Made by a program: the position numbers and the translations under genes. A stretch of 64,000 nucleotides of DNA, from positions 3,761 through 67,760 of IMG/VR virus record IMGVR_UViG_3300029994_000005; one strand, 5' to 3'. The notes under the pieces were generated by a model. The model saw only the letters and a list, made by a program, of their open reading frames with translations, was not told the DNA's origin and searched no databases. Shown piece after piece: positions 1,289 to 61,186 of the stretch. Source of the stretch: a virus. Position 1 is the first letter of the stretch, and the number at the start of each line of letters is the position of its first letter.

Positions 1289-1311
1289 TGTTTATATGGT
1301 ATTATTAAGTT

Positions 1312-1902: not shown

Positions 1903-1906
1903 CTAC

Positions 1907-6720: not shown

Positions 6721-6721
6721 C

Positions 6722-12300: not shown

Positions 12301-12335
12301 CGGTTGATTCTAATCGTCGTCTGTATAATGTCTCT

Positions 12336-13010
12336 ATGAAAAAGGCACGTTATATCTGTCTCGAAGGCACTGAAGGCGTAGGAAAAACAACTCAAACGCA
12401 GAAGTTGGTAGATACCCTTCGCGCGCGAGGATACACCGTATTGCAAACGAAAGAACCGGGCACACCTCTCGTTCCGTTGACAATGGCGTTGCGAGGGATC
12501 ATGTTGGACAATCAATACGATGCTGTTCTGACGAAACCTGCAAGAGAATTTATCTCTCAAGCGATCCGTTCTATTCATCTCGAACGACTTATCGTTCCTT
12601 CTCTAAACGAATATGATTTCATCATTCAAGACCGAGGTATCCTCAGTGGATATGCTTACGGTACTGCATGCGGCAATCTTACCGAAGATCTCATCAGTAT
12701 GGCTAATCAGAACGTTGATTCTGCCGATAATCAGCTCGGAATCTTCCCTCCTTCCGCAGAGCAGATCTATGAGACTGTAATATATCTTCGAGGGGATTCT
12801 GTCAAAGGTTTGGCTGCGGCCAAACAGGCGAAGCAGGAATTTTCTGCTGGCGACGCGATGGAATCTCGTGGAAACGATTTTATTAGTAAGTGCGCATTTT
12901 ACATGGATAAGCTGTCCGAGCGCTTTAACACTGTTAGAATAGACGTTGACGGCAAGTCAATTGAAGATGTACATAACGAGATACTTGCCGGTCTCGGATT
13001 GGGGAAATGA
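12336..13010 (+). CDS. tmk: Thymidylate kinase
   Basis: P-loop YICLEGTEGVGKTTQ with the QTKEPGTP motif. The start is placed at the internal Met (MKKARY), since the longer ORF from 12213 overlaps the upstream gene. Confidence 0.75.
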   Translation: MKKARYICLEGTEGVGKTTQTQKLVDTLRARGYTVLQTKEPGTPLVPLTMALRGIMLDNQYDAVLTKPAREFISQAIRSIHLERLIVPSLNEYDFIIQDRGILSGYAYGTACGNLTEDLISMANQNVDSADNQLGIFPPSAEQIYETVIYLRGDSVKGLAAAKQAKQEFSAGDAMESRGNDFISKCAFYMDKLSERFNTVRIDVDGKSIEDVHNEILAGLGLGK

Positions 13011-13837
13011 TGGCTAAGTCCAAGGCGCGTAAAAAGAAACAGTTGACTGGCCCGAAAGTGCTGATCTTTGATATCGAGACCGCTCCTATCATTGCACACG
13101 TTTGGAGCCTATGGGAAAACAATGTATCCCTCAACCAGATCGTGTCCGATTGGCACGTCTTGAGTTGGAGCGCTAAATGGCTCGGAGACGCGCCTAATAA
13201 GGTCATGTATATGGACCAACGCGGCGCTAAGAACATTGAAGACGACAAGAAGATTTTAGAAGGTATCTGGAATTTGCTTGACGAGTGTGATGTCGTTATC
13301 ACACAGAACGGTAAATCGTTCGACCAGAAGAAGTTGAATGCACGCTTCATCCTGAACGGCTTCCAACCGCCTTCTTCATACAAGCATATCGACACTAAAG
13401 TCATTGCCTCTAAGCATTTCAAGTTCACGTCGAACAAGCTTGAGTATATGACCGACAAATTGAACAAGACCTATAAGAAGCTTAAGCATACTAAATTCCC
13501 GGGACACGAGATGTGGGCCCAGTGTTTAGCTGGTAATCTTGAGGCTTGGAAAGAAATGGAAGTCTACAATAAGTATGACGTCCTTGCCCTTGAAGAGCTT
13601 TACAACAAGCTTATCCCTTGGGATAACAGCATCAACTTTAACGTTTATCATGATGAGGTAGATCACGTGTGCAAATGCGGTAGCACTACATTCATTAAGA
13701 ACGGCTTCTACTATACTTCTGCAGGCAAGTTCCAGAAACACAAGTGTCGCAGCTGTGGAGCCGAACACCGCGATAAAGAAAACCTGTTCAGTAAGGAAAA
13801 GCGCCAATCACTCAAGATGGCGACCCCTAAGACGTAA
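13007..13837 (+). CDS. DnaQ-like 3'-5' exonuclease with a C-terminal Zn finger
   Basis: Exo I motif LIFDIETAP. The C-terminus carries CKCG...CRSCG cysteines. The start overlaps the tmk stop. Confidence 0.65.
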   Translation: MMAKSKARKKKQLTGPKVLIFDIETAPIIAHVWSLWENNVSLNQIVSDWHVLSWSAKWLGDAPNKVMYMDQRGAKNIEDDKKILEGIWNLLDECDVVITQNGKSFDQKKLNARFILNGFQPPSSYKHIDTKVIASKHFKFTSNKLEYMTDKLNKTYKKLKHTKFPGHEMWAQCLAGNLEAWKEMEVYNKYDVLALEELYNKLIPWDNSINFNVYHDEVDHVCKCGSTTFIKNGFYYTSAGKFQKHKCRSCGAEHRDKENLFSKEKRQSLKMATPKT

Positions 13838-14232
13838 TGAAAACGTGTTCGGATTGTAAAGAGACTAAAGAATTATCTGACTTCAAAACAAGAAAGTCAG
13901 GTGTTTTGTACGCTAAGTGTAGATCTTGCTGTTACATAGATGATGTGTCTTGGCGCAACAACAATAGAGATCGATACAGAGCTGGACAGCTGAAAGCAAA
14001 ATTTGGCATCACTCTGGAAACTTATAACCAGATGTTGGCCCAGCAAAATGAAAGATGCTTGGGATGCAACAAGCATCAGTCTGAATTGAAGATTAATATG
14101 GCTGTAGATCACTGTCATGGGACAGGTAAGATTCGCGGCCTTTTGTGTGACGCCTGCAATAAGGCCGTTGGCTATATGAAGGATAACCCTTTAGTTGCTG
14201 ATAACCTTGCAGCCTACTTAAGGAAGTTCTAA
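13837..14232 (+). CDS. Endonuclease-VII-like HNH endonuclease
   Basis: N-terminal Zn ribbon (CSDC...CRSC). Core motif AVDHCHGTGKIRGLLCDACNKAVG. Confidence 0.75.
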   Translation: MKTCSDCKETKELSDFKTRKSGVLYAKCRSCCYIDDVSWRNNNRDRYRAGQLKAKFGITLETYNQMLAQQNERCLGCNKHQSELKINMAVDHCHGTGKIRGLLCDACNKAVGYMKDNPLVADNLAAYLRKF

Positions 14233-14783
14233 TGCACTTTAAAGAGCTTGAAACAAAATACTATGCTGACGATATCGACATGGCTGATTTCATCAAGCTC
14301 GTGCAGCCTCTTAACCCTACATGGATGATGGTATCTTCATATGATGACTACTTTGTCAACGACTCGGACGAATTCATCAGATACCGTTACCATGAACACA
14401 TGGGTGAGCTTACGATCAAACGGAAGACAACCGGAGCTAATAATAACAACCGTGTCGAGGTCAACGTCCCGACTGACGGTAAATCTGGTGCGGCTATTGA
14501 AGCTTTTGCAAGTCTGTTAGGCTATAAGAAGAACTTCTCTATCTTTAAGACCTGCAAGATTGCGTTCCTTGAAAAGGCTGTACTAGTCTATTACATCGTC
14601 TACGACGAAAACCTCAATGAAAAGAAGCGGTTTATCGAAGTAGAGGCTAAGGAAGATTACGCTTGGGCCTCTGAGGAAGAAGCCTGGGCCATGGTTGTAC
14701 AGTATGAAGATATGCTGGCCCCGCTAGGTATCTCAGCTAAGAATCGACTTAAAAAGTCACTATACGAGATGTTCAAGAAATAA
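14232..14783 (+). CDS. Hypothetical protein
   Basis: 183-aa ORF whose start overlaps the upstream stop (TAATG). Confidence 0.5.
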   Translation: MHFKELETKYYADDIDMADFIKLVQPLNPTWMMVSSYDDYFVNDSDEFIRYRYHEHMGELTIKRKTTGANNNNRVEVNVPTDGKSGAAIEAFASLLGYKKNFSIFKTCKIAFLEKAVLVYYIVYDENLNEKKRFIEVEAKEDYAWASEEEAWAMVVQYEDMLAPLGISAKNRLKKSLYEMFKK

Positions 14784-15219
14784 GATACTCGACAGCTCTC
14801 TTTAGGGTCTCTGGATTATCAAAACTGTTACCTAAAAGCGTATTGCAGTTTTGACATAAGAGACCTCTAATTTTACCTGTCTTGTGGCAATGATCGACAG
14901 CTAGTCGCTTTGCAAACTCTGTCCTATTTCTTTTACAGATCTTACAATTGCCCTCTTGTTCTATATACATTTGCTCATAAAGTTCAGGAGTAATTCCATA
15001 CTCCCTCTTTAGATCGCGGTATCTCTTTTTAGAATAATTATTGTCATTCCACTTTTTATTAGTGGCTTTATTCTTTTCAGGGTTAGCCGCTTTCCATTCT
15101 CTAGCGATACGCTTAGTACATTCTTTACAGCGTCCCTTTCGTTTAGGTGAAAATTTACCCTTATAGAAGTCTTCTTGTGATTTATGCTGTTCGCAAATAG
15201 TGCAATATACTGTTTCCAT
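14773..15219 (-). CDS. Endonuclease-VII-like HNH endonuclease
   Basis: Core motif AVDHCHKTGKIRGLLCQNCN, with an N-terminal CTIC...CKEC Zn ribbon. It is convergent with the flanking plus-strand genes. Confidence 0.75.
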   Translation of the reverse strand: METVYCTICEQHKSQEDFYKGKFSPKRKGRCKECTKRIAREWKAANPEKNKATNKKWNDNNYSKKRYRDLKREYGITPELYEQMYIEQEGNCKICKRNRTEFAKRLAVDHCHKTGKIRGLLCQNCNTLLGNSFDNPETLKRAVEYLIS

Positions 15220-32359: not shown

Positions 32360-32776
32360 CTAGCTCTTATTGGGTCTGGTGTGTTCCACCAGACCCTTTA
32401 TTTTTTCAGCCACGTATTCCGGATCGTTAAGTAATCGATTCAATCCGGAGGGGTGGGGCAATTCATAAAAGTTCACACCTAGCATCTTCAATGCGGTAGC
32501 GGCAGTTTTTCCTACAGCTATAATTGGTACATCTTTGTGGTGTGCAATGATCATTGCAAGATGGTTAAGTCTACCCTTGATCTCTTTCATCGTCAGTTGT
32601 CTATTGCCTGGTGTTGGTGTATTGACCAGATTGTGCATAATAGATATGTTTATCCCTGCCTTTTCAATCCATTCGTGCAACGTTTTACCACTACCGGTGG
32701 ACATATCGAATGCTCCATTGCCCTTAGACGCTTGCGATGGATTAGATCCAATGAATAAAGCTGTGCGCGGTTTCAC
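32360..32776 (-). CDS. Uracil-DNA glycosylase superfamily protein (family-4-like)
   Basis: N-terminal motif LFIGSNPS...GNGAFDMSTGSGKTLHEWIEKAGI and C-terminal HPSGLN resemble UDG-superfamily motifs A and B. Confidence 0.5.
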   Translation of the reverse strand: MKPRTALFIGSNPSQASKGNGAFDMSTGSGKTLHEWIEKAGINISIMHNLVNTPTPGNRQLTMKEIKGRLNHLAMIIAHHKDVPIIAVGKTAATALKMLGVNFYELPHPSGLNRLLNDPEYVAEKIKGLVEHTRPNKS

Positions 32777-33873
32777 GATGTCCTCGGTTTAATCTGTAAA
32801 TGATAAAAATCACCAACCGTAGAGCAATTGATTTCTAAGTCTAGCATGGCTGAACTATCTTCAAAGTCACTATATTTTTCTTTAAAATAAAACTCACTTA
32901 TGCCTGCCTGCCACAACATTCTGATACACTTAGTGCAAGGAGATAGGGTGCAATAAAGTATACAATCACCAGTCTTAACTCCTGATCGCACTGCGTTACA
33001 TAATAAGTTTGTTTCTGCGTGTATTATATAATTATATTTTTCTGGACGAGATGTGGGTAGAGAACTGTCTGGTCCACCCCTAACGAACCCATTAAAACCT
33101 TCTGCCGTAACCGCTAATGTTTTAGGGTCTATTAATAGGGCTGCAACTTTAGTATGTATGTCGTGTGACTGTGACGCTATAACTACAGCTCTATCGTGAT
33201 AGATTTTAAGTTTTTTCTCTGAGATCGGGTTATTGGTTTGGTTAAACTTGTTATTTTTAACTATTCTCTGTATTTGTTCTAAAAAATGTGTTGCAGAGTA
33301 ATCTAATTTCATAGTGTTGCAAGTAGCACAACTTGTGACACAGTTTGATGTTTGGTACCCAATAGAGTTATCCAATCTATCGATTCCATTGTATTTAACT
33401 ATTGTGTGTTTATTTTTTTGAATGTTGGCAGGGGAAGCGTCACAGTAGAAACAATTTTGAAAAATAAGCCCCTTAAACTCATCTAAGGTTAGATTAAAAT
33501 CATAATTTCTAGCCTTAGCATTGCCCTTATAATCTAGAAAAATATTATTGATAGATGTCGTTTTTAGCTGTTCGTCTGTTCGAGCATATCTATTGCCACA
33601 GTGGCCACATCCACTTGAGGTGCCATTAATTAAACTTGCAACTTTTATTGACTTAAGAACACCACATTTACACTTTACATCTACATATCGTGTTTTTTTT
33701 GATTTTAAGTTTATCTTAATGTAAGGAAGAGACATTATTGTCCATTTATTTATGACAGAATTTAAGGCAATATTCTCTGTCTTAGATGGACGTTTCATAC
33801 TCTTATTTAACCTCTGCCTACAAAGGCATTTCTCTATCTTTGATTCACACGTAGGATAGATACACCGACGCAT
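32773..33873 (-). CDS. Fusion ORF of an N-terminal Zn-ribbon plus HNH-like endonuclease domain and a C-terminal dCMP deaminase domain
   Basis: The C-terminus has HAETNLL...CTLSPCTKC (Zn-binding CDA fold, as in dCMP deaminase). The N-terminal about 200 aa has CKCG...SSGCGHCG and YNGIDRLDNSIGY...NCVTSCATCNTMK (HNH-like). It is one continuous frame with no internal stop. Confidence 0.7.
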   Translation of the reverse strand: MRRCIYPTCESKIEKCLCRQRLNKSMKRPSKTENIALNSVINKWTIMSLPYIKINLKSKKTRYVDVKCKCGVLKSIKVASLINGTSSGCGHCGNRYARTDEQLKTTSINNIFLDYKGNAKARNYDFNLTLDEFKGLIFQNCFYCDASPANIQKNKHTIVKYNGIDRLDNSIGYQTSNCVTSCATCNTMKLDYSATHFLEQIQRIVKNNKFNQTNNPISEKKLKIYHDRAVVIASQSHDIHTKVAALLIDPKTLAVTAEGFNGFVRGGPDSSLPTSRPEKYNYIIHAETNLLCNAVRSGVKTGDCILYCTLSPCTKCIRMLWQAGISEFYFKEKYSDFEDSSAMLDLEINCSTVGDFYHLQIKPRTS

Positions 33874-34923: not shown

Positions 34924-35186
34924 TATTCCTCCGGATCGAGTTCAGTTGACGAGATACTATCTTCTTTAGCTTCTAAGTCATCGATGATGCTCTGTGCACC
35001 AACAAATACACGATGTGGATCGTGAGTCACCTTCTTAAGGCGTTTCATTTTAACTTTTTGCTTGATCTTTCCACGGATAGGACAATTAAACTCTACTTCA
35101 ACTTCCACGATCTCTTCAATTGTCGGGTCTTCGAATACATGCTTCTTTTTGTTTTTAGCACCCTTGGGTCTAGCCATTATTTCCAC
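34923..35186 (-). CDS. Hypothetical basic protein
   Basis: 87-aa ORF. Confidence 0.5.
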   Translation of the reverse strand: MEIMARPKGAKNKKKHVFEDPTIEEIVEVEVEFNCPIRGKIKQKVKMKRLKKVTHDPHRVFVGAQSIIDDLEAKEDSISSTELDPEE

Positions 35187-35713
35187 TCCGTATCAATAAT
35201 CTGTTGCAATGCCATTGTGTATGCCTTGATGGGCCCTGGTACTTTGCGCGTATACGCGTACGAACACCATTCTTTGTACGATCCTTGAATAATCAAGGTT
35301 GTATATATGTTAATGGGGGTAAGGACCTGTGATACAAACGCATCTGCGCCATCTGCTTGATAGGCTCTGGGATTGATAAGAAGGGCAGCAGTTGTGCGAG
35401 AAATATCATTAGAGATCGCTTGTGCTGTAACGACGTCGCTTCCTCCAAGCTGAGCTGCCGAAGGGATATATGCTTCTGACTCGACATCTGCATTCTCCGT
35501 GTTGATGATCTTAAATGCAAACTTAGATAGGTCTAGCTGAACAAACAGTGGACACTTCATAACTACAGTGAGTGACCCCAAGTCTTCAAGAACAGTAGGG
35601 TATTTACCAAAGAAGAACTCTTGATCTATATCTCTTAGTTTCTGAGTGGTATTGCAGCTATCGATAAGGGCAACGAAGCCCTTATCGAGAACTGGTATCT
35701 TATTGAGTAGCAT
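35177..35713 (-). CDS. Hypothetical protein
   Basis: 178-aa ORF. Confidence 0.5.
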   Translation of the reverse strand: MLLNKIPVLDKGFVALIDSCNTTQKLRDIDQEFFFGKYPTVLEDLGSLTVVMKCPLFVQLDLSKFAFKIINTENADVESEAYIPSAAQLGGSDVVTAQAISNDISRTTAALLINPRAYQADGADAFVSQVLTPINIYTTLIIQGSYKEWCSYAYTRKVPGPIKAYTMALQQIIDTEWK

Positions 35714-36192
35714 TACAGGTCCTCGTCTTCCTCTTCGACCTTAGCTTCTTCTTCTTCTTCTTCTTTTTTCTGAGCAAAAGGATTATTCTCGTTGTCGTCT
35801 TCAGCAATACCTGCACGACAAGTGTAATCCTTAACGTCGTCAAACACGCCATCGAGCATCGACTCAGTAATGATGTCTTGGAAGTGAGCTTCGATATAAT
35901 CAACCGTGTTCTCGTCCAAGATCTTCATAGCAGCAGCCAGATCTTTTTGCAAGATAACAACTTTAGCATGATGCTGGTGATCTTTCCACATGATGCCGAC
36001 AGTCTCACACATCTCTTCAAATGTGAAGACGCCGCGGATCGTAGAGGGTAAGAACTTAGCTTTAGAGCGATCGCCTGAGCTAACAGCCACGAGGAATGAT
36101 TCTGATTTAAGGGAAGAGAGATCCATCGTCTCTAATTCACCAATGAAATCATCTCCGGTCTTAACTGGCAAGTTCATATTTGGATCAGACAT
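35713..36192 (-). CDS. Hypothetical protein with an acidic poly-Glu C-terminus
   Basis: 159-aa ORF ending in the tail EEEEEEAKVEEEDEDL. Confidence 0.5.
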   Translation of the reverse strand: MSDPNMNLPVKTGDDFIGELETMDLSSLKSESFLVAVSSGDRSKAKFLPSTIRGVFTFEEMCETVGIMWKDHQHHAKVVILQKDLAAAMKILDENTVDYIEAHFQDIITESMLDGVFDDVKDYTCRAGIAEDDNENNPFAQKKEEEEEEAKVEEEDEDL

Positions 36193-36386: not shown

Positions 36387-36647
36387 CTAAAACAGTGAAG
36401 TGGCTCTTAGCTGAACCAGTTCAGCTTGTTCTGCTGGAGTCAACGGCTGCATGAGCTGGCCAAGCAGTGTCGTAATTTGTGACACAGTTAGAGTACTCGT
36501 ACCAGTTGTAAGCTGCGGCATACCAAGGCCACCGATATTATTGTTGTTGCCGCCAGGAATCGGCTGATTCTGGTTCAACATATCGTTTAGATCTTTTGTA
36601 AGCTGATCTATTGGATCGTCTTTTTTATCGAATGGCCACATACTCAC
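36387..36647 (-). CDS. Hypothetical protein
   Basis: 86-aa ORF that ends in a TAG stop. Confidence 0.45.
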   Translation of the reverse strand: MSMWPFDKKDDPIDQLTKDLNDMLNQNQPIPGGNNNNIGGLGMPQLTTGTSTLTVSQITTLLGQLMQPLTPAEQAELVQLRATSLF

Positions 36648-37441
36648 ACCTCACCGAGCATCTTTTTTACCATCTCTTCGTTCTTCTCATAGATGTGTAA
36701 GCTGTGCACAGTGTGAGTGTAATGTCCTTTAGTGAGGTTAGGATACACATCTTTAAGTTCTGCAACCATCTTATCCATGAGACCGCAGAACCACGGAAGG
36801 TCGTATACAAGACCCAGAGTGAGATCGTTCGAGCGCATGACGACAGATAGATGTAACTGGTCGTTGCGGATCAAGAAGTTGCCATGCATCGTGCAAGTCT
36901 GATCCTTATTGCCGACCCACTGATGTTCTGGAAGAGAGAAACGTAGGATAGCCTGACGAGTATCTTTATCAGCAAGAAGAGACTGCTTCGCCCACTCCCA
37001 AGGAGTGCGCATAACGTTTTCTTCTACTAGGAAGTGCGCAGTTTCTCCGTTTTCGTAGACACCTTCGTGGACAACTGTTTGGCGCTCAAAATGAGATCCG
37101 CTTGACTTTTTAGACCAGATAAGATGGCCGTACGCGCTGTTAACAGTGCCGTCAGGGTTAGCGAGACTGAGCCAAAATTTTGAGGCTCGTCCGAAATCCT
37201 CTGCAGAATTCGTGCAGGAATCATATAGCTCCACTTCTTTCCGGGTGTATGAAGCAATAGTTTCGTTGCGCTTTGGATCTCGAGTAACGATAGGATCATC
37301 AGTAGGTCCCAAAACCCGGAATGAGTAGTCGAGTACTTCTCTGCAAGGTTGCCCGCGTGGCGCGCTCTTGACGTCAGGGTTGTAGTAGACATCCGCGAGG
37401 GTACCGAGATAGGCTTCCGAGACATTTTTATATACTTTCAT
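36644..37441 (-). CDS. Thymidylate-synthase-fold enzyme; divergent, and possibly a pyrimidine dNMP hydroxymethylase or methyltransferase rather than a canonical ThyA
   Basis: Motifs align by eye to Thy[15 protein letters not shown] corresponds to [50 protein letters not shown] corresponds to PCHAFFQFYV...[39 protein letters not shown] corresponds to GDTHLYSNH. Asp replaces the Asn that selects for uracil. Confidence 0.7.
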   Translation of the reverse strand: [265 protein letters not shown]

Positions 37442-37467: not shown

Positions 37468-38154
37468 CTAATACTCTTTGGTCATTAGTTCTAATTCAGC
37501 CGAGTAAATGTTTGAGCGAAGAAGCTCGACGAAGAATACACTCTGGTGTGACTCAATCTCAAAACCCTTCTTGATGTATTTAGTGAGGCGACGAATGCTA
37601 ACCCCACGTGGAACGGGATTGAAGCAGATCTTCTTCTGAGTGCAGTCTTCCATAGAGCCTGCAACTACATAAAGAACACCTAGATTGGGATCGATCGCCA
37701 TGGAGCAAGCGCGAATGTCAAAACGAGAGATAAGGTGGGCAGGCGAAGTGTGCTCTACTCCGTAGATCAAGTTTACTTTCTGTGAACCTAGATGACCGTA
37801 TGCGCACATAGGATTAGTAAAGTCAAAGTGTGCGGCATTAAGTTTAGCAAACTCCTGAGCAAGTTCTTTGGTCTGGAAGTATAGATCGATATCGTCGTAC
37901 GTGAGTATGAGTCCAGCTAGCTGTTTAGCAACGATGCTCATTACGTATGAACCAGAGATAAGTGTGCCAAACGGAAACTTAACTCCGGTGTTTATGTTTA
38001 TAGAACCTTTGCGCACTTCTACGTTAGCATCGTAGTCATCCATCAGAAGAGCGCTGCCGAGATGTGACAGTTGCTCTTTATATAGAGCTTCACCCTTTTT
38101 GATATCTTGAACAAGAGGAATAAAGAACTTAGGGTTGATTAAGAAATCGCTCAT
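37468..38154 (-). CDS. Hypothetical protein
   Basis: 228-aa ORF with a weak GS...DIDL nucleotidyltransferase-like pattern. It is not assigned. Confidence 0.5.
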   Translation of the reverse strand: MSDFLINPKFFIPLVQDIKKGEALYKEQLSHLGSALLMDDYDANVEVRKGSININTGVKFPFGTLISGSYVMSIVAKQLAGLILTYDDIDLYFQTKELAQEFAKLNAAHFDFTNPMCAYGHLGSQKVNLIYGVEHTSPAHLISRFDIRACSMAIDPNLGVLYVVAGSMEDCTQKKICFNPVPRGVSIRRLTKYIKKGFEIESHQSVFFVELLRSNIYSAELELMTKEY

Positions 38155-38685
38155 GCTTTCTCCAGATATTGAATAGCTCTGATAAGAGTGTTTATATTCT
38201 CTTTAGAGTTGCCAATCATCACGTTGCAATTGAAACATAAAAGCCCTCTCACTTTACCTGTCGTATGACAATGATCAACATGGAACCTAGAACTAAACTC
38301 TGATGCATATCTTTCACAGACTCCGCATTTGTTGTCTTGAGAATGAAGCAATAGTTCATAGGCCATGATAGCTTCTTTAGGAGATAATTCTGGCCAATAC
38401 TTAGTTAAGTGGTGACCTTTATTGTTTCTTTTTTTCTTGTACGGTATTTAAAGATTTCCAATTTGCTTTTAACTTAGAAATAAACTCTGGATTATTTTCA
38501 CGATAGTTTTTCGAAGTTTGACAAGTGCATTCGCGACATGAAGGCTCTAAACCATCTTTTGCTTTTTTCTTTTTATTAAAAAGCTTTAAAGGTTTAGGTG
38601 TTTTGCACTTTGTACAAACTTTATTTTTCACTATCATGCTCCCACAAAGTCTCCTCAATGTTCGCGTGCCACACACCGTATCCAT
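38151..38685 (-). pseudogene. Endonuclease-VII-like HNH endonuclease split into two ORFs (38419..38685 with the Zn ribbon and 38151..38366 with the HNH core) by a -1 shift at an A7 tract
   Basis: The upstream piece has CTKC...CRECTC. The downstream piece has HVDHCHTTGKVRGLLCFNCN. The two join into a full-length paralog of 13837 and 56382 if one base is slipped in GAAAAAAAG (plus 38428-38436). Confidence 0.6.
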
Positions 38686-39109
38686 AACGCTTCTTGGTGA
38701 GACGCTTCATCATCTGACCAGTGCGATTAAACAAGTGTTGGAACACAAACGTGGATTCCTTGACAGAGCGACCTTCTTTAGTACGGTAGTTAGGATTGTA
38801 ATTGTAGAGTGCAATACAAACTTCCGTGCGAAGATGCTGGCGAATATCATTCAAGGACATACCAGTGTTTCCAAGGGAATTATCCCCTTGACCTTTCTTG
38901 GTGTTCGCCTCGTTCCAGTTCTTAGCAACGTTATCGCGGATATACTTTTCGACCATAGGCTCGTACTTAAGAATGTCTTCGTTTGTCAAGGTGCGGTCAT
39001 ACTTGTTAAAGTTCTTAACCGGCTTCTCGTCATTTTCTTCTTCAGACTCTTCGACTTCTACCCCGAGGTCAATGAGCGTCTCTTCGGTATCAGAATTATC
39101 GTTGTTCAC
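38621..39109 (-). CDS. Hypothetical acidic protein
   Basis: 162-aa ORF. Confidence 0.5.
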   Translation of the reverse strand: MNNDNSDTEETLIDLGVEVEESEEENDEKPVKNFNKYDRTLTNEDILKYEPMVEKYIRDNVAKNWNEANTKKGQGDNSLGNTGMSLNDIRQHLRTEVCIALYNYNPNYRTKEGRSVKESTFVFQHLFNRTGQMMKRLTKKRYGYGVWHANIEETLWEHDSEK

Positions 39110-44925: not shown

Positions 44926-46353
44926 TTACACCTTTACAGGATAAGCACGAGCACGCACTTGATCCAGAGTTGATTGGTTAGTCAACACACCGTTCAAGAA
45001 GACCTGCTCAAGCAGTCCACCTTTTTCGTCAGCAGCAGATACTTGATCTGTTGTGACGTAACGACCGTTGATGAAATCAAGACGCATTCTACCCTTGTGC
45101 GATTTCTTGCCCGAGTCAGTAATAGGGTCCTTAACGATGTCGCGCTCTTCTCCATTAACTTCTACGTAAGTGGTCTTAACAGCGAAGCCTTGGTCGTCAC
45201 GGCTGTGCGATTGCAACAGCAATCCACCAACACCGATAACGAGATTAGAAGACGCAAATCCCATGCCCTTTAGACGCGCGAGGATGCACTCGTAACGGTC
45301 AAAATACATTCCGTCGCCGTAGATCAGGCCTACTTTAGGATTCAATTCTTGGAAGCCTAATGCGTTCGTTGTCGTACCGAACTGGCGAGCCAACAGACGC
45401 ATAGCACCGAGGTTCTCAGCAGAACCAGCAGGAGCAGACGGGTTTCCACAGATGATGAGCTCTGGGTCACCAGAGTCCGGGCGGAATACCACTTTGCCGT
45501 CACGAGCCATGATGCGCTTGTAAAGTACCTGAGTGAAGTTCTCAAGAACATTCCACAGGTTATAGGTATCAGACACGATAGAGACGATGCCGGTAGGGTA
45601 AGTGTTGAGCATGTGCTCAAACGCCTTCAACTCATGTTCCTGACCGTACGAACACATAACTGAGTGCTCAGATGCAGGGACAGAAGCACCGATAAGGCCA
45701 GTCGCAGCGTAGTTCTCCATCAAGAACTTAACAGCCGGAACGGTATCTGTTCCACGGAAGTTGATCAAGTGAGCAGCACCAGAGATAGCCGCAGTCTCCT
45801 CAGACGAGCAACCACGGTATCCGAAGTCATGGACAGCCCAATCGCAGTGGAGACGGTTGCCTACAGTTTCATCCGCGTATGTGTCTACAAGGTTACGCAA
45901 CTTCATAGAGTACGAACCAACAGTTGTCGGGTTCCATACTTTAAGAACGAGCGACTCAAAGAAGCCAACTGTCCAAGCGAAGTCAGGATGAGTATTGGTC
46001 ATCGTGAGAAGAACGTTCTTAACGGGCAGAACAGTTCCTTCTGGAACAGCTTTGATCTCCAAGGGGATATAACCAAGGTCTGCCAATGCGTGCATCTTTT
46101 CAAAGATGTGGCGCGGGGTAGGTCCGAGAATCGATTCACGTACCTGCAAGAACTCGTTCACCATTGGGTGAGTGATCTTCTGTGCCAAGTAGTTCTTCAA
46201 GATAGGCTGAAGCCCATTGAAGAGCGTGAACGGAATCTTCTTGTCGGAGCGAGCAACGAGATAGGCGTAGGCCTTAGTGATCCCCTCTGGGAACTGCTCC
46301 ATGTGCCCCATCTTATATACGTCAGTGCAAAGTAATACGTTATCGTTAATCAT
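44926..46353 (-). CDS. Nicotinamide phosphoribosyltransferase (NAMPT/NadV) family
   Basis: 475 aa. The N-terminus NVLLCTDVYKMGHMEQFPEG matches the NAMPT signature NILLxTDSYKxxHxxQYP. The size is typical for NadV. Confidence 0.8.
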   Translation of the reverse strand: MINDNVLLCTDVYKMGHMEQFPEGITKAYAYLVARSDKKIPFTLFNGLQPILKNYLAQKITHPMVNEFLQVRESILGPTPRHIFEKMHALADLGYIPLEIKAVPEGTVLPVKNVLLTMTNTHPDFAWTVGFFESLVLKVWNPTTVGSYSMKLRNLVDTYADETVGNRLHCDWAVHDFGYRGCSSEETAAISGAAHLINFRGTDTVPAVKFLMENYAATGLIGASVPASEHSVMCSYGQEHELKAFEHMLNTYPTGIVSIVSDTYNLWNVLENFTQVLYKRIMARDGKVVFRPDSGDPELIICGNPSAPAGSAENLGAMRLLARQFGTTTNALGFQELNPKVGLIYGDGMYFDRYECILARLKGMGFASSNLVIGVGGLLLQSHSRDDQGFAVKTTYVEVNGEERDIVKDPITDSGKKSHKGRMRLDFINGRYVTTDQVSAADEKGGLLEQVFLNGVLTNQSTLDQVRARAYPVKV

Positions 46354-46361
46354 GTTTCTCC

Positions 46362-46604
46362 TTAAAAGTTAAATGTAGCTGTTACGTAGAAGCGGACTTC
46401 GCCCTCGTCTTCTTCTACTGAGTAGTCGAACGTTGTACCATCATCAAAATGTTCTGCGAGAGCATCAACCTTAGCCTGCGCAAGAGTGTGCTCCACAGAC
46501 ATATCAACCCCTGGGATCTTCTTCACAACGTGAATTGGTTTCTTCTTCTTAGGGTCGATGGTATCGCTCACGCTTCCACCATATCTGGATCGCAGACGAT
46601 CCAA
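46362..46604 (-). CDS. Hypothetical protein
   Basis: 80-aa ORF. Confidence 0.45.
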   Translation of the reverse strand: MDRLRSRYGGSVSDTIDPKKKKPIHVVKKIPGVDMSVEHTLAQAKVDALAEHFDDGTTFDYSVEEDEGEVRFYVTATFNF

Positions 46605-47077
46605 TTGATTCTTGGATAATCTTTTAAGAGGATTTCAAGGATAAGTTCTGAGTCTTTCCAAGGTACAGCGAACAGACCAGAGTTAAACTTATTAGAGTAG
46701 ACGTCGATCTGTGGGTACGTGTCGCTTGGGTGGGCGAGATAGATCTTACGTAAGAGATCACGGAGAGCTAGAGTTGTATTGATCTTGATCTCTTCTACGC
46801 CGTCTTTCTTAGGTCCGTAGTCATGAGATGTAACGATCCAGCCGACCCAGTGAGCTTCGGATTCAGGGAACGATGATAGACCAGCAAGACCTACAGCCGT
46901 TCCACGCTGCATGTTAGCAGACTCGCAGAACATCTTGTAGTCGAGAAAGCTCTGAAGATACTTCTCTTTGAAAGGCTTGGCAATGCCAGAACCCCAGACA
47001 CCCTGCGAGTTGCAGGCATGAATGATTACACTCTCACGAGGAGCGTCAAAGAGACTCATCTTCTTGTGGGTTACCAT
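46568..47077 (-). CDS. Macro-domain protein (ADP-ribose binding or processing)
   Basis: N-terminal motif VIIHACNSQGVWGSGIAKPF resembles the macro-domain signature (NAANxxLxxGGGV). Confidence 0.7.
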   Translation of the reverse strand: MVTHKKMSLFDAPRESVIIHACNSQGVWGSGIAKPFKEKYLQSFLDYKMFCESANMQRGTAVGLAGLSSFPESEAHWVGWIVTSHDYGPKKDGVEEIKINTTLALRDLLRKIYLAHPSDTYPQIDVYSNKFNSGLFAVPWKDSELILEILLKDYPRINWIVCDPDMVEA

Positions 47078-47895
47078 ACTTTATATCCTTCCGGGTTCCT
47101 GAGCAGAGAGTTCGTGGTGTGAATATCACGGATCCCTGCATCAAATAATACCTGCTTCCCTTTTGAGAATAGTCCGTGTGAGACTGCTAGGTCGATTGGT
47201 CCTGTCTTATATTCTTTAAGTGCTTCAGCTACTTTGATGAAGGTCATCCCGCCGTCGCAGATGTCGTCGATGATTAGGACACTCTTGCCGTAGAGATCCT
47301 GGTGAGATGTATTAACTTTAAGTCCAGTGATCTCGCCCGTCTGCTGGTTGCGAACCTTCTCGCACCAGATGAACTGCTTACCAGTGGTCTTAGCGTAGCG
47401 CTCAGCTGCGCCTTTGTCTGGGTAACATACAAAGTCATAACCGATGGTGTTAAACAGAGTCTGATGAAACTCTTTGGGAGTTGTAGACTCCATTGGAAAG
47501 ACGAGATCAGACTTGGAGTGTGGGTCAAAAGCCTCGATGCGCGTGATACCTGCGTTATATAGGATCTCTGTGAATGTCTTGAGCGCGAAGCTCAACTTAT
47601 TGTTTACTTCCTTATCTTGACGAGCGTAAGGAAGATAAGGACATACAAGATCAACACTGGTATCGAAAACGTCATAGCATAACTGCGCCACTTGGCATAC
47701 TTGGATTAACTCAGCTTCATTCTCAAACAGCCATAGTATATATGTGACGCTGTTCGGATCCATCTTTGACTCATCAATCTTCCAGACCTGGGAAGTTCCA
47801 TCTGGAAAGATGGTTATCGTAAAACTTACTTCTTCGCCGTCGCTGATGAGCTTAATCATGTGTTCTCTCCCAGTAAGAAATCTAAGTGGCGCCAC
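47071..47895 (-). CDS. Ribose-phosphate pyrophosphokinase (PRPP synthetase) family
   Basis: Motifs ISDGEEVSFTI, CPYLPYARQDK and VLIIDDICDGGMTFIKVAEALKE match the Prs divalent-cation and PRPP-binding sites. Confidence 0.8.
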   Translation of the reverse strand: MAPLRFLTGREHMIKLISDGEEVSFTITIFPDGTSQVWKIDESKMDPNSVTYILWLFENEAELIQVCQVAQLCYDVFDTSVDLVCPYLPYARQDKEVNNKLSFALKTFTEILYNAGITRIEAFDPHSKSDLVFPMESTTPKEFHQTLFNTIGYDFVCYPDKGAAERYAKTTGKQFIWCEKVRNQQTGEITGLKVNTSHQDLYGKSVLIIDDICDGGMTFIKVAEALKEYKTGPIDLAVSHGLFSKGKQVLFDAGIRDIHTTNSLLRNPEGYKVW

Positions 47896-48356
47896 ATAGC
47901 ATCGTGCTCGCCGTCTTTCTTGAGCATCAGCTTGAAGTGCGGATACTCTTTCTTGTACATGTCAAGCTGTTTCGCTTGATCTAGTACAGACCGTTCTACG
48001 TTTGCTATACGGTCAGCCAGCTTCAGGGTCGTAGCCTCTCTAGAGGCTTGAATCTTAGGGTAGGTCTTTTCGTGACGCTCTTTGCGGTTCTTACCAGGCT
48101 CGTTTGTTACTCGGTGAACTAGATCTGCTACATGCCTACCGAATGTAATCTCGATCTGGAACACTGTTGCATCTGTGTCTTCGACTACATCATGCAACCA
48201 GGCTGCGACCTGAAGGTCCTCGCTATCAAACTTGAAGCGGCGCAAGACTTCAGCTACGGCAGCGAGATGCTCTGTGTAGGGAGAATTCTCCCCGTATTTC
48301 TGGTCTTTGTGCTTTGCTGCTGCAAATGCCGCTGCTGCTTGAATAGCGAGGCTCAT
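47856..48356 (-). CDS. HD-domain phosphohydrolase (RelA/SpoT-hydrolase-like)
   Basis: Motifs AAKHKDQKYGE.PYTEHLAAVAEVL and WLHDVVEDT. Confidence 0.65.
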   Translation of the reverse strand: MSLAIQAAAAFAAAKHKDQKYGENSPYTEHLAAVAEVLRRFKFDSEDLQVAAWLHDVVEDTDATVFQIEITFGRHVADLVHRVTNEPGKNRKERHEKTYPKIQASREATTLKLADRIANVERSVLDQAKQLDMYKKEYPHFKLMLKKDGEHDAMWRHLDFLLGENT

Positions 48357-50676: not shown

Positions 50677-51204
50677 TTAAAATTTATTCGACTTCTTTAA
50701 GTTCTCTTCCCTAGGTAAATGTTGTAAATTCCAGGGCACATGTAGTCCACTTACGTTATCACCCTGTAATGGGACTATATGGTCCACATGGTGCCCTTCA
50801 GGACGATCTTTATAAATCTGCTTAATGTCGTCCATATTGACCCATTTTGGAGTTTGCAACTTAATCAACTTTCTTCTCTGTGTAGCATCGATGGACTCTT
50901 TCTGTCTAAATTCTTCGTTGGTTCTGTATTTCTCTCTTCTGAAGAGTTTAGTTCTTTCTTGCTCTGCTGCTCTATATTCTTCGTTATTGTTATAACGCTT
51001 TTTCATGTTTTTTAGATTTTGAGCATTATGTCTAGCTTTAACATTCGGATCTTTTAAAGATTCAGTTTTGCGTTTGGCTGAACTCAAAATTCTCTTTTGT
51101 CTATAAACAGGATCTGAGTCATACTTCCACTTAATATAATGGTTTTGACAAAACCCTTTACCCTTATGTTTTCTCTCACAGCCTTCAATACTACACTTCT
51201 TCAT
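50677..51204 (-). CDS. HNH homing endonuclease, inserted between the two halves of the tRNA array
   Basis: HNH core GHHVDHIVP...N...[16 protein letters not shown], with an N-terminal [16 protein letters not shown] Zn ribbon. Paralogous to 1312 and 11200. Confidence 0.8.
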
Positions 51205-55186: not shown

Positions 55187-56377
55187 CTATGTCTCTTCTG
55201 GTTCTATTTTAGGTGCTTCTTGAGGCTTAACTGGGTTTGCGTAATCATACATTCCAGGCTTAACAGTAAAATGCATGTGATCAGGTGCTGCGTGGTGCGA
55301 AGCCAGTTCGCGCATTTGTTTATTTGAGCCTGAATTATTACTCTGACCTGGGAGTCTAGATCCTATAGTCTGAATGTGAGATACTGGAACCCATGCAGAG
55401 TGAAGATCGCCGTACGTCTTAGCTGCATCCTCGTTAGTCCACCAGCCTTCGCCTTTGTGACCTACTTTTCCATCTTTAACTTCAAAGAGAGAATCTTTCC
55501 AGTCAGGACCGTAGTTTTCTTCAGAGGCCGCTTCATCATAGTTCATGCCGCGATGAAGCTTCAAATGAAGCTCTGGCTTACCAGTAGCAGAGTTGGTGCG
55601 TGTCTGAAAATGGCTCTTAGCGTCTGGTTGGCCATTAAAATATTTAACTGCCGCTAACTGTGTTCGCTTTTCCTCTGATGGATCATTAGTACGAGGATTA
55701 TGCTCTAATGTACTAGCACTTCTAGGAAAAAAGTCATCTTCATTCTTGATTGGGTTTACAGGCTTGGGGGCAAGGCGACGCATAGCACCTTTTTCCAAGC
55801 CATCAGACTTTGGGTCTTCACTCTCCTGGTCGCGATCAAACAGCTCAATAAAGTCAGAGAGACCTTGAGGAGATAGGGACTTGATGAGGTCAGAGAGCTG
55901 AGCGTCATCTTGGAACTTCGCCTTCATCAGAGTGTAGAGTTCATCTACAGTGATGTCGTTCTTCTTGAGGCGTTTCTTCCAGGCGCGAAGCTTCTTAGGG
56001 TCAACATGATGACGACCACGGTTAAGCTTCTCAGGGACTGCACGGGTGTTAGATGCTGCGTAGCCCTTGCTGTTATCTTTACGATCTGGAGAGAGTTTCT
56101 CGCCGGTCTTCTTCTCAGCAGTTTGAATCTGCTTCACGATGCTCTTACGTGAACCAAGTCCTGATGACTTCTTAGAAGCCGTACCGTTCTTGCCCTTTTG
56201 GCGGCGAAGAGCGTCATCAGCTTTAGTCTGAGCACGTTGTGAAGAACCTGGCTTCTTCTTAGCAGCGGCAAGTTTCTTTAAGCAAGCTGAGCAGCGGCCA
56301 CTAGGGTTTCCCTTAGAGGCAGAGGCGCCACCACAGCGAGGACATTTCTTTTCGAGAACTTCAGTGAATTCACTCAT
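55187..56377 (-). CDS. Basic protein with an N-terminal Zn ribbon
   Basis: 396 aa with CPRCGG...CSACLKK. Confidence 0.5.
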   Translation of the reverse strand: MSEFTEVLEKKCPRCGGASASKGNPSGRCSACLKKLAAAKKKPGSSQRAQTKADDALRRQKGKNGTASKKSSGLGSRKSIVKQIQTAEKKTGEKLSPDRKDNSKGYAASNTRAVPEKLNRGRHHVDPKKLRAWKKRLKKNDITVDELYTLMKAKFQDDAQLSDLIKSLSPQGLSDFIELFDRDQESEDPKSDGLEKGAMRRLAPKPVNPIKNEDDFFPRSASTLEHNPRTNDPSEEKRTQLAAVKYFNGQPDAKSHFQTRTNSATGKPELHLKLHRGMNYDEAASEENYGPDWKDSLFEVKDGKVGHKGEGWWTNEDAAKTYGDLHSAWVPVSHIQTIGSRLPGQSNNSGSNKQMRELASHHAAPDHMHFTVKPGMYDYANPVKPQEAPKIEPEET

Positions 56378-56381
56378 GATA

Positions 56382-56855
56382 CTATTCTACCGCACTATGC
56401 TTCTCAACATATTCGGCTAGGCGTCTAATAACTTCAGGATCACTTCTAAGATAACCTTCTGCCCTATTACACGCATCACACAGTAAGCCTCTAATTTTAT
56501 TAGTCTTATGGCAATGGTCAACGGCTAATTGTTTAACGGTTCCATTTTTATGAGTAGAAGTCTCTGGTCTTAAACACACAGCGCATACATAATTTTGCTT
56601 TATTAGCATTTCATTATATTGAGATAAAGAGATCCCATACAATCTCTTGAATCGAGCGTTATCTCCTTTTCTCGGATTCTGCTTATATAACTCTTTTGCT
56701 CTTACAGAATAATAGTCTTTATAGTTTTTTCTCACTCTAGCTGCAACACAGATTTTACATGAAGATTGCAGCAAATTTGAATTCTTACCTCTTTTAGAGA
56801 ATTCGTTGTTTGGTTTGCTTAACTTGCATTTATTACAAATTTTATGGCCAAGCAT
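56382..56855 (-). CDS. Endonuclease-VII-like HNH endonuclease
   Basis: Core motif AVDHCHKTNKIRGLLCDACN, with an N-terminal CNKC...CKIC Zn ribbon. Confidence 0.75.
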   Translation of the reverse strand: MLGHKICNKCKLSKPNNEFSKRGKNSNLLQSSCKICVAARVRKNYKDYYSVRAKELYKQNPRKGDNARFKRLYGISLSQYNEMLIKQNYVCAVCLRPETSTHKNGTVKQLAVDHCHKTNKIRGLLCDACNRAEGYLRSDPEVIRRLAEYVEKHSAVE

Positions 56856-58994: not shown

Positions 58995-59756
58995 TTATCG
59001 AATCGGTATATTGCGACCCTTTAGTTCTTCTAAACTCCAAACTTCTACATTGATAGAAGGATAGTCTTGCTTAAGTAATTCATACTTAACTTTGGCGTCA
59101 TCTTGCCACCAACCTTTTATCTCAACGTAGTGGTCTCTACTTCTATCATAGAAGTCAATTATATAAGTTCGACCATCAGAAAGATTAAAAGGAACTTGCC
59201 AGTCAAAATCTACCTTATTAGTATTTAAGTAGTTAACTACATTGCGCTCCCATTTTCCTTTACATTTAAGAATATCTAGTGTCTTCCAATGTTCAACTTC
59301 ATAGATATTAGAACAGTTAGTGACCCTTTTTAAGATAAGTTCTGGGTCATGGTTACGAGCTATGATTTTTTCTAAGTTGAGACAACCACAGGATTTAGCA
59401 TTACCTGAAGTAAGTGAACCTGCTCTGATTGTGGTTTCTTTGCCACAGTCACACAAACATCTATAAACAACTCCCCTTTTAGGGAGTTGAATTCGTTCTA
59501 ATGCTAAAAGCCTATTAAGCTTTTGACCAGTGAGATTTTTATTGCGTGTTATACGTATCTTCTCTAAGTTTAGACAACCACAAGATTTGGTATTACCGGT
59601 TACTAGTCCATAACTTCTTACAATAAGAGAATTACCACAATCGCATTTACATTCATAAGCAGTTTTGTCCAAACCACTTTCTTTTCCTGTAAGACGCTTA
59701 ATTGTAAGTAAACGCCCAAATCTTTTACCTGTATGATCTTTAGCTCCATTTTTCAT
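58995..59756 (-). CDS. Putative homing endonuclease with two tandem Zn-binding repeats and a C-terminal PD-(D/E)xK-like nuclease motif
   Basis: The unit ...RLL.I.R...YxCxCDCG......R.G.LTSGN.KSCGCLNLEKI appears twice. The C-terminus has DGRTYIIDFYD...HYVEIKGWW (D...D...ExK pattern). Confidence 0.55.
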   Translation of the reverse strand: MKNGAKDHTGKRFGRLLTIKRLTGKESGLDKTAYECKCDCGNSLIVRSYGLVTGNTKSCGCLNLEKIRITRNKNLTGQKLNRLLALERIQLPKRGVVYRCLCDCGKETTIRAGSLTSGNAKSCGCLNLEKIIARNHDPELILKRVTNCSNIYEVEHWKTLDILKCKGKWERNVVNYLNTNKVDFDWQVPFNLSDGRTYIIDFYDRSRDHYVEIKGWWQDDAKVKYELLKQDYPSINVEVWSLEELKGRNIPIR

Positions 59757-59794: not shown

Positions 59795-61186
59795 TTATTT
59801 TCTATGGCTTGTACTACCATCAGGACATTTTACTGTGTCACCCAAATTTTTCATTGGGTGGTCTTCTGTTCCGCCCTTAGAGATAATCCATAGTATTTGA
59901 GGAGGATTTTGACCTGGTCTAAGCCATGACTCCCAGTCAACCTTACTGTAACATCCATCGGTAATAAAAATATTAAGATCACCTTTGCGCTTAAATACAT
60001 CCTCAAGCGACTTAGTGAGATCTGTACCACCAGACTGAATCATAGATTTGTCAATCTTCGTGCCCATCTTGTACTGCTGACGTCCGTAGAGATCAGTGTG
60101 GAAGAACGAGAGGTTACACTTTCGTGCGCCAACCTTCAAGAACTGATCCACGATCTCAAGGAATTCATTCAACTCCTCAGTGCTGATAGAACCAGACGTA
60201 TCGAGGTGAAGCTCAAGCTTAGGCAGATCGCCTACTTTAGTGCCTGGAGCTTTGAAGCCCAGACGCTTGTTCTTGCGCATCCACGTGCCTTTGCGGTTGT
60301 GACCGTTGGCGTGTTTCTTCATCGCCATCAAGATCAACGCTTTGTAGTTCAACTCAGCACGGCGAGTCTTGATGTCCTCAAGAAGATCTTTGACGTGACC
60401 AGGGAGATCGTCGTATGACAGACGAGCTTTAACCATTGCACGTTTTACGAGCTCTTCAGTAGCATCGAGCATCTCTTTTTCGTCGCCAGCGCCATCCCAC
60501 ATGTGTTCGTCGATCGTCTGTGGAAGGTCACCAGTCTCAGCTCCGCCACCAGCATTGCCCTGACCTTCGCCATCGCCATCGCCATCTTCTGGATCTTCAA
60601 AGCGCTTGATCAATTTCTCGTAGTAATGTTCCATGGTCTGAACAGTCTGCCAAGGAGTCTTGGTGCCAGTCTTTTCATCTACGTCATGGTAATGAGCTAC
60701 ATCGATACACTGGCCTGGGCAAAGCTCATTGGGGCAAGGCTGACCGTCTTTAGTACACTGTGGGCAACCAGCAGGAAGATCCTTAATGAATTGATTGATC
60801 GCCATATCAGCTGCGATGTTCATGAGCATGCGCTTACGAGCGCTGATCTTCATGAACGGAACGCGCAATGGATGCTTATGTGTGATGTGAGAAAGTTCAT
60901 GAATAAACACGGCTTTACGCTGAGCTGCGTTCAATTTCTTACAGAAGAAGTACGGATTTACCAACATATCCCAGCGCTTAGCATCTGTATTGAACATGAT
61001 ACCGGCTGTAGGAAGTTGGTGGGAATAGGAGATTGTCAAGCACTGCAGAACCGATCCTAAGAACGGGTGCGTTTTTGAAGTCTCATAGATGGTAGTGGCC
61101 AAGCATTGGGATTTCTCCTCAACTGGCACGAACTCTTTGTCCATCTGCTTTTTAATCTCTTTAGGATCTCTAATTCTTGATGACAT
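59795..61186 (-). CDS. vWA-domain protein with an N-terminal HExxH metallopeptidase-like (DUF2201-type) domain
   Basis: N-terminal FIHELSHITHKH (HExxH). The C-terminal vWA MIDAS motif LHLDTSGSIS...FFHTD. It is adjacent to the MoxR ATPase. Confidence 0.7.
   Translation of the reverse strand: MSSRIRDPKEIKKQMDKEFVPVEEKSQCLATTIYETSKTHPFLGSVLQCLTISYSHQLPTAGIMFNTDAKRWDMLVNPYFFCKKLNAAQRKAVFIHELSHITHKHPLRVPFMKISARKRMLMNIAADMAINQFIKDLPAGCPQCTKDGQPCPNELCPGQCIDVAHYHDVDEKTGTKTPWQTVQTMEHYYEKLIKRFEDPEDGDGDGEGQGNAGGGAETGDLPQTIDEHMWDGAGDEKEMLDATEELVKRAMVKARLSYDDLPGHVKDLLEDIKTRRAELNYKALILMAMKKHANGHNRKGTWMRKNKRLGFKAPGTKVGDLPKLELHLDTSGSISTEELNEFLEIVDQFLKVGARKCNLSFFHTDLYGRQQYKMGTKIDKSMIQSGGTDLTKSLEDVFKRKGDLNIFITDGCYSKVDWESWLRPGQNPPQILWIISKGGTEDHPMKNLGDTVKCPDGSTSHRK

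Follow-up and report, generated by a model that had tools for sequence, protein, structure and literature searches.

The window analysed here is a 64,000-nucleotide stretch of viral DNA (IMG/VR record IMGVR_UViG_3300029994_000005, positions 3,761 to 67,760). On its minus strand, at 36644-37441, lies a gene with an ATG start that encodes a protein of 265 amino acids (aa) belonging to the thymidylate synthase (TS; ThyA-fold) superfamily. We conclude from its sequence and modelled fold that this TS-like gene probably encodes a folate-dependent dCMP 5-hydroxymethylase of the T4 gp42 type; the enzyme is a new, distant member of this known enzyme type, in an uncultured phage lineage. We also lean, less firmly, towards virion DNA that carries 5-hydroxymethylcytosine (5hmC) or a derivative of it. 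The sequence read comprised 84 kb of a genome of ~175 kb, namely the window and its flanking DNA, from about -8 to +71 kb in the numbering of the window.

Pfam analysis of the TS-like protein revealed a match to PF00303 (E 1.2e-10; 41.5 bits, with the gathering cutoff at 24.3), and PHROG_160, annotated 'thymidylate synthase', was matched with an E value of 6e-29. In sequence, fold and tree position ThyA was more distant from the protein than cytosine hydroxymethylases were, which agreed with the original prediction of a cytosine-modifying enzyme with the TS fold. A phmmer search of all PDB sequences returned the CMP 5-hydroxymethylase MilA of Streptomyces rimofaciens (7e-16) and T4 gp42 (1e-13), with true ThyA enzymes reaching only ~3e-3. 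Pairwise phmmer scores were 61.9 bits for MilA, 54.8 for T4 gp42, 29.1 for SPO1 gp29 and 15.2 for RB69 gp48, and E. coli ThyA gave no phmmer match to the protein at all. The NCBIfam ThyA equivalog models scored 17-33 bits against cutoffs of 108-427. An AlphaFold2 model built from a 129-sequence alignment (mean pLDDT 98.0, pTM 0.92) was compared with the PDB by Foldseek; MilA was found first (E 1.4e-20, TM 0.75-0.77) and T4 dCMP hydroxymethylase, gp42, second (2e-17, TM 0.70), followed by ThyA enzymes at ~1e-14. In a neighbour-joining (NJ) tree the TS-like family was sister to T4 gp42.

The family is large, with 1381 homologues at E<1e-5 in a 90%-clustered database and 936 at E<1e-10 among 50% representatives. 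The best cultured or deposited relative of the protein was encoded by LR756500 (37.8% identity), and a megablast search of INPHARED found no near-identical DNA in cultured phages.

Active site and reaction type

The ThyA core motifs that had been aligned by eye in the original prediction (the Cys in TCTMHGNF, RS.D and H.Y) were present and aligned as claimed, at C183, R203-D206 and H249/Y251. Cys183 (codon 36893-36895, minus strand) lies in QTCTMHGNF and corresponds to C146 of E. coli ThyA and C148 of T4 gp42. R203-S204-N205-D206 aligned with E. coli R166-S167-C168-D169, so that Asp206 (codon 36824-36826, minus strand) is the equivalent of D169, and H249-I-Y251 aligned with H207/Y209. The catalytic residues Cys146, Glu58, Tyr94, Arg166, Asp169 and His207/Tyr209 of E. 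coli ThyA thus have their equivalents in C183, E69, Y104, R203, D206 and H249/Y251; Trp90, Arg162 and Ser204 are further key residues. An alignment of 129 family representatives sharing 30-81% identity showed W90, Y104, D180, C183, R203, D206, G210 and Y251 to be invariant and E69, T184, S204, R162, H249 and D214 to be conserved in >=90% of the sequences.

The residue at the pyrimidine-specificity position had been predicted to be Asp rather than the Asn of ThyA. Structure-guided and profile alignments both placed Asp214 (codon 36800-36802, minus strand) in the column occupied by N177 in E. coli ThyA and by D179 in T4 gp42, exactly eight residues past D206 and ungapped, as in T4. In phage TS homologues the N177D replacement (E. 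coli numbering) confers specificity for cytosine, according to a 2026 study whose rules were partly tested and partly correlated (PMC13326640). In a metavirome association study, residues 177 and 147 showed the strongest association with cytosine modification of contigs, and the same study has already shown TS homologues with Asp177 to be frequent among modified metaviromic contigs (PMC8670742). In the TS-like protein the equivalents of residues 143, 147, 169 and 177 read D-T-D-D, the same signature as T4 gp42, whereas E. coli ThyA has L-H-D-N, the dUMP hydroxymethylase SPO1 gp29 has D-N-D-N and the 5-hydroxy-dCMP synthase RB69 gp48 has E-T-N-D. None of the features of a canonical ThyA (Asn177, His147, Leu143, a C-terminal lid and an equivalog-level score) was found in the TS-like protein, which carries D214, T184 and D180 and has a short end.

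Of known enzymes, T4 gp42 (PDB 1B49, 1B5D, 6A9A) shares with the TS-like protein not only the ThyA fold and the D-T-D-D signature but also the MRSND...D spacing, the short C-terminus, the tree position and the full set of Cys, Glu, Trp, Tyr and His-x-Tyr residues. The two proteins are only ~27% identical. The TS-like protein differs in a pre-Cys loop that is four residues shorter, in the replacement of the second SRR-motif Arg by Gln, in an even shorter C-terminus and in an added insertion. This insertion, residues 114-145, is a lineage-specific stretch of 32 residues which forms a long two-stranded beta-hairpin in the AlphaFold2 model and sits in the region of the variable 'small domain' of ThyA. 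Its length and sequence vary among close relatives, and it is absent from LR756500, from T4 gp42 and from the homologues on two metagenomic contigs described below (L027 and L028).

The original prediction had left open whether the enzyme is a hydroxymethylase or a methylase; the first was supported, and the second was disfavoured by the invariant Asp180, the Thr at position 147, the retained D169 and the missing ThyA tail. Asp180 (codon 36902-36904, minus strand) stands three residues before the catalytic Cys and is placed at E. coli L143 (T4 D145). A bulky hydrophobic residue at this position goes with a methyl product, and Asp or Glu goes with a hydroxymethyl product, as in T4 gp42 and MilA (PMC13326640). 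A dCMP methyltransferase making 5-methyl-dCMP would lead to 5-methylcytosine (5mC) in the DNA, as in Xanthomonas phage Xp12, and papers citing Liu & Santi (1992) and Hardy & Nalivaika (1992) report that Asp177 alone turns ThyA into a dCMP methylase. A dCMP deaminase gene also lies nearby, as in Xp12. The acidic residue, however, occupies the L143 position in 129/129 sequences, as it does in hydroxymethylases, and the nearest relatives by score are hydroxymethylases.

The DNA of Xp12 contains 100% 5-methylcytosine. Examination of 50 kb of this phage (MT664984) revealed a single TS homologue, at 45326-46195, which is the presumed dCMP methyltransferase given the 5mC DNA. This homologue resembles the TS-like protein in having Asp177, a retained D169 and a dCMP deaminase neighbour; in contrast to it, the Xp12 protein has Asn at Cys-3, Pro at 147, the RR motif of ThyA and a C-terminal tail of ThyA length, and its gene adjoins one for dihydrofolate reductase (DHFR). 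This architecture is what would be expected for hydride transfer yielding dihydrofolate. The C-terminus of ThyA is needed for closure of the active site at the hydride-transfer step. The TS-like protein ends 14 residues past Tyr251 and lacks the ThyA C-terminal tail, and no DHFR was found in the 84 kb read. Together with the Asp at Cys-3, these two features favour the addition of water, that is, hydroxymethylation, and we consider methylation unlikely.

An enzyme acting on uracil nucleotides, either a divergent thymidylate synthase or a dUMP hydroxymethylase of the SPO1 gp29 type fed by the dCMP deaminase, is quite improbable. It would fit the lack of a canonical ThyA or ThyX in the 84 kb read, the presence of genes for a dCMP deaminase and a dTMP kinase, and a portal protein that is distantly SPO1/Mx1-like. 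SPO1 gp29 and the TS-like protein also have in common a DxDTRQ motif, a short T/N-K-D-x-x-C loop and RSND. SPO1 gp29 nevertheless differs in its Asn at the specificity position, its Asn at 147 and a C-terminal extension of ~140 aa, and it scored only 29 bits. All uracil-specific members carry Asn where the TS-like protein has Asp214, so the Asn177 of dUMP hydroxymethylases is absent. Position 214 was Asp in 121/129 family sequences and Asn in 8/129, and seven of these eight ('PYN') fell in one subclade of the NJ tree; a split of this kind is the pattern that would be expected from a discrete substrate switch, and the separate Asn subclade argues that the position has been selected as one. Additionally, the TS-like protein scored 33 bits against an NCBIfam ThyA cutoff of 174, and relatives hold a canonical ThyX alongside the TS-like gene.

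Flavin-dependent 5-hydroxy-dCMP synthases, which would seed O-glycosylated 5-hydroxycytosine, are represented by RB69 gp48 and DLP3 gp80 and share D177, T147, an acidic residue at 143 and a short C-terminus with the TS-like protein (PMC13326640). These enzymes, together with RL38JI, are marked by D169N (PMC13326640). This diagnostic replacement is missing from the TS-like protein, in whose family Asp206 is present in 129/129 sequences. G173 is lost in these synthases (Val in RB69) and kept here as Gly210, and RB69 gp48 was the weakest match of the phage references at 15 bits, all of which makes such an activity very improbable.

MilA (PDB 5B6D, 5JNH) functions in antibiotic biosynthesis. It was the best match of the TS-like protein by both sequence and fold, with the same short N-x-D-x-x-C loop and Asp at both the 143 and the 177 equivalents. 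An enzyme of the MilA or BcmA kind, hydroxymethylating the ribonucleotide CMP for use in RNA or small-molecule chemistry and not in DNA, can nonetheless hardly be expected here: the Ala167/Lys126 pair of these enzymes (Ala176 and Lys133 in MilA) is not present but replaced by the deoxy-selecting Ser204 and Arg162, the C-terminal region of MilA is missing (318 aa against 265 aa), and the gene lies in a phage nucleotide-metabolism context. Ser167 and Arg126 select deoxyribose, and Ala and Lys ribose; the A176S/K133R exchange switches MilA to dCMP (PMC5175136). Ser204 was found in 128/129 and Arg162 in 123/129 family sequences, and these two residues indicate a deoxyribonucleotide substrate.

The catalytic set of a dCMP 5-hydroxymethylase is conserved, and ThyA and gp42 enzymology suggests how the reaction would proceed. 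Cys183 would add to C6 of dCMP, with Asp214 hydrogen-bonding and protonating cytosine N3/N4 and so choosing cytosine over uracil, and Ser204 and Arg162 picking the 2'-deoxy substrate. C5 would then attack the iminium form of 5,10-methylene-tetrahydrofolate, whose pterin would be held by Asp206 and Trp90. Tyr104 and Glu69 would help in the removal of the C5 proton and the elimination of tetrahydrofolate, leaving an exocyclic methylene intermediate. In the open and polar site, with Asp180 in place of Leu143 and no C-terminal lid, water would add to this intermediate in place of a hydride transfer, and the products would be 5-hydroxymethyl-dCMP and tetrahydrofolate. One or both of the thymidylate kinase (TMK)-like kinases of the window (4070-4918 and 12213-13010), together with the host NDP kinase, could convert the product to hm-dCTP. 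5hmC, possibly further decorated, would then be incorporated by the phage polymerase into virion DNA, where it may protect against host nucleases. Some of the dCMP would be turned into dUMP by the dCMP deaminase and so feed the synthesis of dTTP.

Gene context in relatives and pathway partners

The gene order orf162 - TS-like - orf159 - orf178 - dCMP deaminase - UDG-like (UDG, uracil-DNA glycosylase) was kept in 16/18 IMG/VR relatives, whose TS-like proteins were 48-82% identical to that of the window. Some relatives carried partners of the T4 type. LR756500.1 is an uncultured phage of 462 kb whose TS-like enzyme has the DTDD signature. It encodes a TMK-like kinase directly upstream of the TS-like gene, a sugar-nucleotidyltransferase-like gene nearby and a T4 beta-glucosyltransferase 1.4 kb downstream (PF09198, 81.7 bits, E 6.7e-23). 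On L027, a small contig of an unrelated phage, the TS-like enzyme (59% identical, signature DTDD) is preceded by a gene for a 160-aa protein which ends exactly at the TS-like gene start. This protein matched PF08761 (dUTPase_2) with 37.7 bits and shared 41% identity with the T4 dCTPase gp56 over the last 70 residues of gp56 (E 1e-14).

The same contig encodes, at 1182-1502 (minus strand) and 1858-3068 (plus strand), a PF18909 dATP/dGTP diphosphohydrolase (MazZ-like) beside the cassette of the gp56-like dCTPase and TS-like genes. MazZ-like PF18909 enzymes occur in 2-aminoadenine 'Z-genome' phages, and this arrangement could mean that bases are modified in two or more ways in that phage.

L028, with a 57% identical TS-like enzyme, has a homologue of the TMK-like orf282 of the window directly upstream of the TS-like gene (PHROG_761, 5e-19), and a bona fide ThyX (PF02511, E 2e-37) is encoded close by. 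A canonical ThyX near the TS-like gene was also found in L023, L024, L029 and L020. The co-occurrence of the family with T4-type 5hmC partners and with a separate thymidylate synthase argues that the TS-like enzyme is not itself a dTMP synthase. The TS-like/ThyX/TMK-like cluster of L028 also includes, at 4498-7077, a gene resembling C5-cytosine DNA methylases (PF00145, E 2.5e-15) and one for a 429-aa protein. The latter had been taken by eye for a T4 beta-glucosyltransferase, an assignment that was dropped after phmmer against the PDB, PHROGs and Pfam gave no support for it. In L022 a DUF7768 gene resembling nucleoside 2-deoxyribosyltransferases lies just downstream of the TS-like gene, at 11211-11528 (PHROG_355, E 2e-28). 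MilB, the partner of MilA, belongs to the nucleoside 2-deoxyribosyltransferase superfamily.

Several results weigh against the assignment as a dCMP 5-hydroxymethylase and against 5hmC in the virion. Partners were sought in the 84 kb read with precomputed Pfam matches, with Pfam, PHROG and NCBIfam scans, and with tblastn using T4 and relative-derived queries. The only candidates found there were the TMK-like kinases; neither a dCTPase nor a known DNA glycosyltransferase was detected in it, and a canonical ThyA or ThyX was likewise missing. Unlike in T4, no beta-glucosyltransferase or dCTPase gene adjoins the TS-like gene in this phage. As neither of these partners was found in the 84 kb read, full replacement of cytosine cannot be argued, and because these two and DHFR are lacking there, modified DNA is something that we infer. 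The gene associations cited in support were seen in relatives that share 38-60% identity, and two of these relatives belong to unrelated types of phage. The rule for position 143 is a published correlation and not a proven determinant (PMC13326640). The equivalence of Asp180 with L143 was set by the loop register, that is, by its place at Cys-3 in a short loop like those of MilA (NIDVAC) and SPO1 (TKDRPC). Finally, Arg127 of E. coli ThyA is replaced by Gln163, a substitution that SPO1 gp29 shows as well.

The neighbours of the TS-like gene that had originally been cited as fitting a modified pyrimidine were real genes, and it was their value as evidence that diminished. The open reading frame (ORF) at 32773-33873 (minus strand, 366 aa) encodes a dCMP deaminase in its C-terminal third only, at residues 223-337 (PF00383, E 5e-16), with intact HAE and PCxxC motifs; the N-terminal ~200 aa are HNH/EndoVII-like. 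Relatives L020, L023 and L030 have stand-alone deaminases of 150-190 aa, so the ORF appears either to be called too long or to result from an in-frame fusion with an endonuclease. The deaminase is predicted, by analogy with T4 Cd, to convert dCMP to dUMP, which is compatible with the pathway and not specific to it. The same holds for the dTMP-kinase family protein at 12213-13010 (plus strand), which scored 83.1 bits with TIGR00041, just below the cutoff of 83.25, and whose true start may be internal, at about 12336.

The second kinase-like protein, orf282 (4070-4918, plus strand, 282 aa), has an N-terminal thymidylate-kinase P-loop, ILEGLDRTGKST, and matched TIGR00041 weakly and at its N-terminus only (E 6e-5). 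It too is not specific to the pathway. It is a candidate 5hm-dCMP (dNMP) kinase, and in L028 and LR756500 the gene immediately upstream of the TS-like one encodes a homologue of it. The UDG-superfamily protein (32360-32776, minus strand, 138 aa), at the end of the conserved block, is family-4-like (PF03167, 2.6e-9) and gave no PDB match; it does not serve as evidence of modification.

Directly upstream of the TS-like gene, at 37468-38154 (minus strand), a 228-aa Gad2-like protein with a weak match to PF26128 (Gad2, anti-Gabija) is encoded. As it had no PDB match and was present in some relatives only, it was rejected as a pathway member and treated as an unrelated accessory. Further upstream, orf162 (38621-39109, minus strand, 162 aa) shows the highest conservation of all neighbours of the TS-like gene (55-80% identity in relatives) and had no family match. 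Its likeness to small sigma-like factors of phages was judged by eye alone, and it was not counted in the pathway.

The ThyX-fold neighbour orf178

Two genes downstream of the TS-like gene, a position kept in 16/18 IMG/VR relatives, lies orf178 (35177-35713, minus strand, 178 aa). Alone it gave no Pfam, PHROG or NCBIfam match, with PF02511 below threshold. A profile of 12 family members, however, matched ThyX almost end to end in the PDB (6j61, 2.7e-6; T. maritima 1kq4, 4.9e-5). An AlphaFold2 model of orf178 (pLDDT 85.3) matched ThyX structures by Foldseek with TM 0.75-0.81 and E ~5e-12, and all top PDB and BFVD matches were ThyX. The 449 homologues of orf178 are unannotated.

Alignment of 73 family sequences revealed that every ThyX catalytic or binding residue was replaced or deleted in all of them (73/73); those lost are, as numbered in the T. 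maritima enzyme, H53, R78, H79, R80, S88, R90, Y91, E144, R147 and R174. The ThyX motif RHRxxSxxxxSxRY is not present, and orf178, which falls ~40 residues short of ThyX in length, has invariant residues of its own, including Cys54-Pro55. The family also coexists with a canonical ThyX in some relatives. Judged by these residues, orf178 is not a thymidylate synthase.

Between the TS-like gene and orf178 lies orf159 (35713-36192, minus strand, 159 aa), which has an acidic C-terminal tail, had no family or PDB match and was present between the two genes in all relatives having the region. It is conceivable, and in our view doubtful, that the block of the TS-like, orf159, orf178, dCMP deaminase and UDG-like genes forms a single pathway in which the ThyX fold took on a new role, either catalysing another reaction or binding nucleotides, with 5hm-dCMP or 5hm-dUMP as examples of its target, giving a pyrimidine modification other than plain or glucosylated 5hmC. 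The lack of known glycosyltransferase and dCTPase genes nearby in this phage lineage would be accounted for by such a pathway.

The phage and its wider significance

An identical TS-like protein was found on contigs of ~175 kb from several metagenomes, including JGI 3300029915 Ga0311358_10000057 (175,284 bp) and ENA ERZ27249170 (174,948 bp). The portal protein (1907-3901) is ~30% identical to the portals of Myxococcus phage Mx1 and SPO1-like Herelleviridae. A relative with an 82% identical TS-like enzyme is a contig of 146,658 bp that was binned with a metagenome-assembled genome of Cytophagales, a weak hint of a Cytophagales host for the lineage.

The first part of the window, 1-32 kb, encodes a structural module on the plus strand, and 32-64 kb encodes early-type genes on the minus strand. 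In addition to the UDG-like, HNH and dCMP deaminase, and TS-like genes, these include EndoVII genes and genes for a peptide deformylase, ParB-like, NAMPT, macro, phosphoribosyltransferase, SpoT-like HD hydrolase, T4 DenV-like, PTH2, NifU-like and metallophosphatase proteins. NAMPT (PF04095), the macro domain, the phosphoribosyltransferase (PF00156) and the SpoT/RelA-type HD hydrolase form a cluster at 44926-48356 (minus strand) which resembles phage counter-defence sets for NAD+ salvage and alarmone hydrolysis. The HD_4 protein within it (47856-48356) was considered as a dCTPase and rejected, as it matches the SpoT/RelA hydrolase domain instead.

The heavy load of homing endonucleases noted in the original prediction was borne out, and it too carries no weight as evidence of modification. 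EndoVII, HNH and GIY-YIG genes are dense, for example at 6099-6620, 13837-14232, 14773-15219, 38151-38366 and 50677-51204, and further at 55187-56377, 56382-56855, 58995-59756 and 59795-61186. Some of these homing-endonuclease-like genes are missing from otherwise identical contigs; the EndoVII gene at 38151-38366, for instance, is not present in L001.

The most unusual loose end of the region is orf178, a ThyX fold without the ThyX active site, and it offers a lead. The TS-like enzyme itself is a distant and compact sequence with which the product rules for TS homologues (positions 143, 147, 169 and 177) can be refined. If the assignment is correct, a widespread uncultured lineage of environmental phages of ~150-180 kb, with hundreds of metagenomic homologues of the enzyme, would carry 5hmC or a derivative, and cytosine replacement of the T-even type would extend well beyond the Straboviridae. 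Such DNA would withstand many restriction enzymes as well as certain bisulfite-type and library-preparation methods, and could thereby bias the recovery of these phages from metagenomes.

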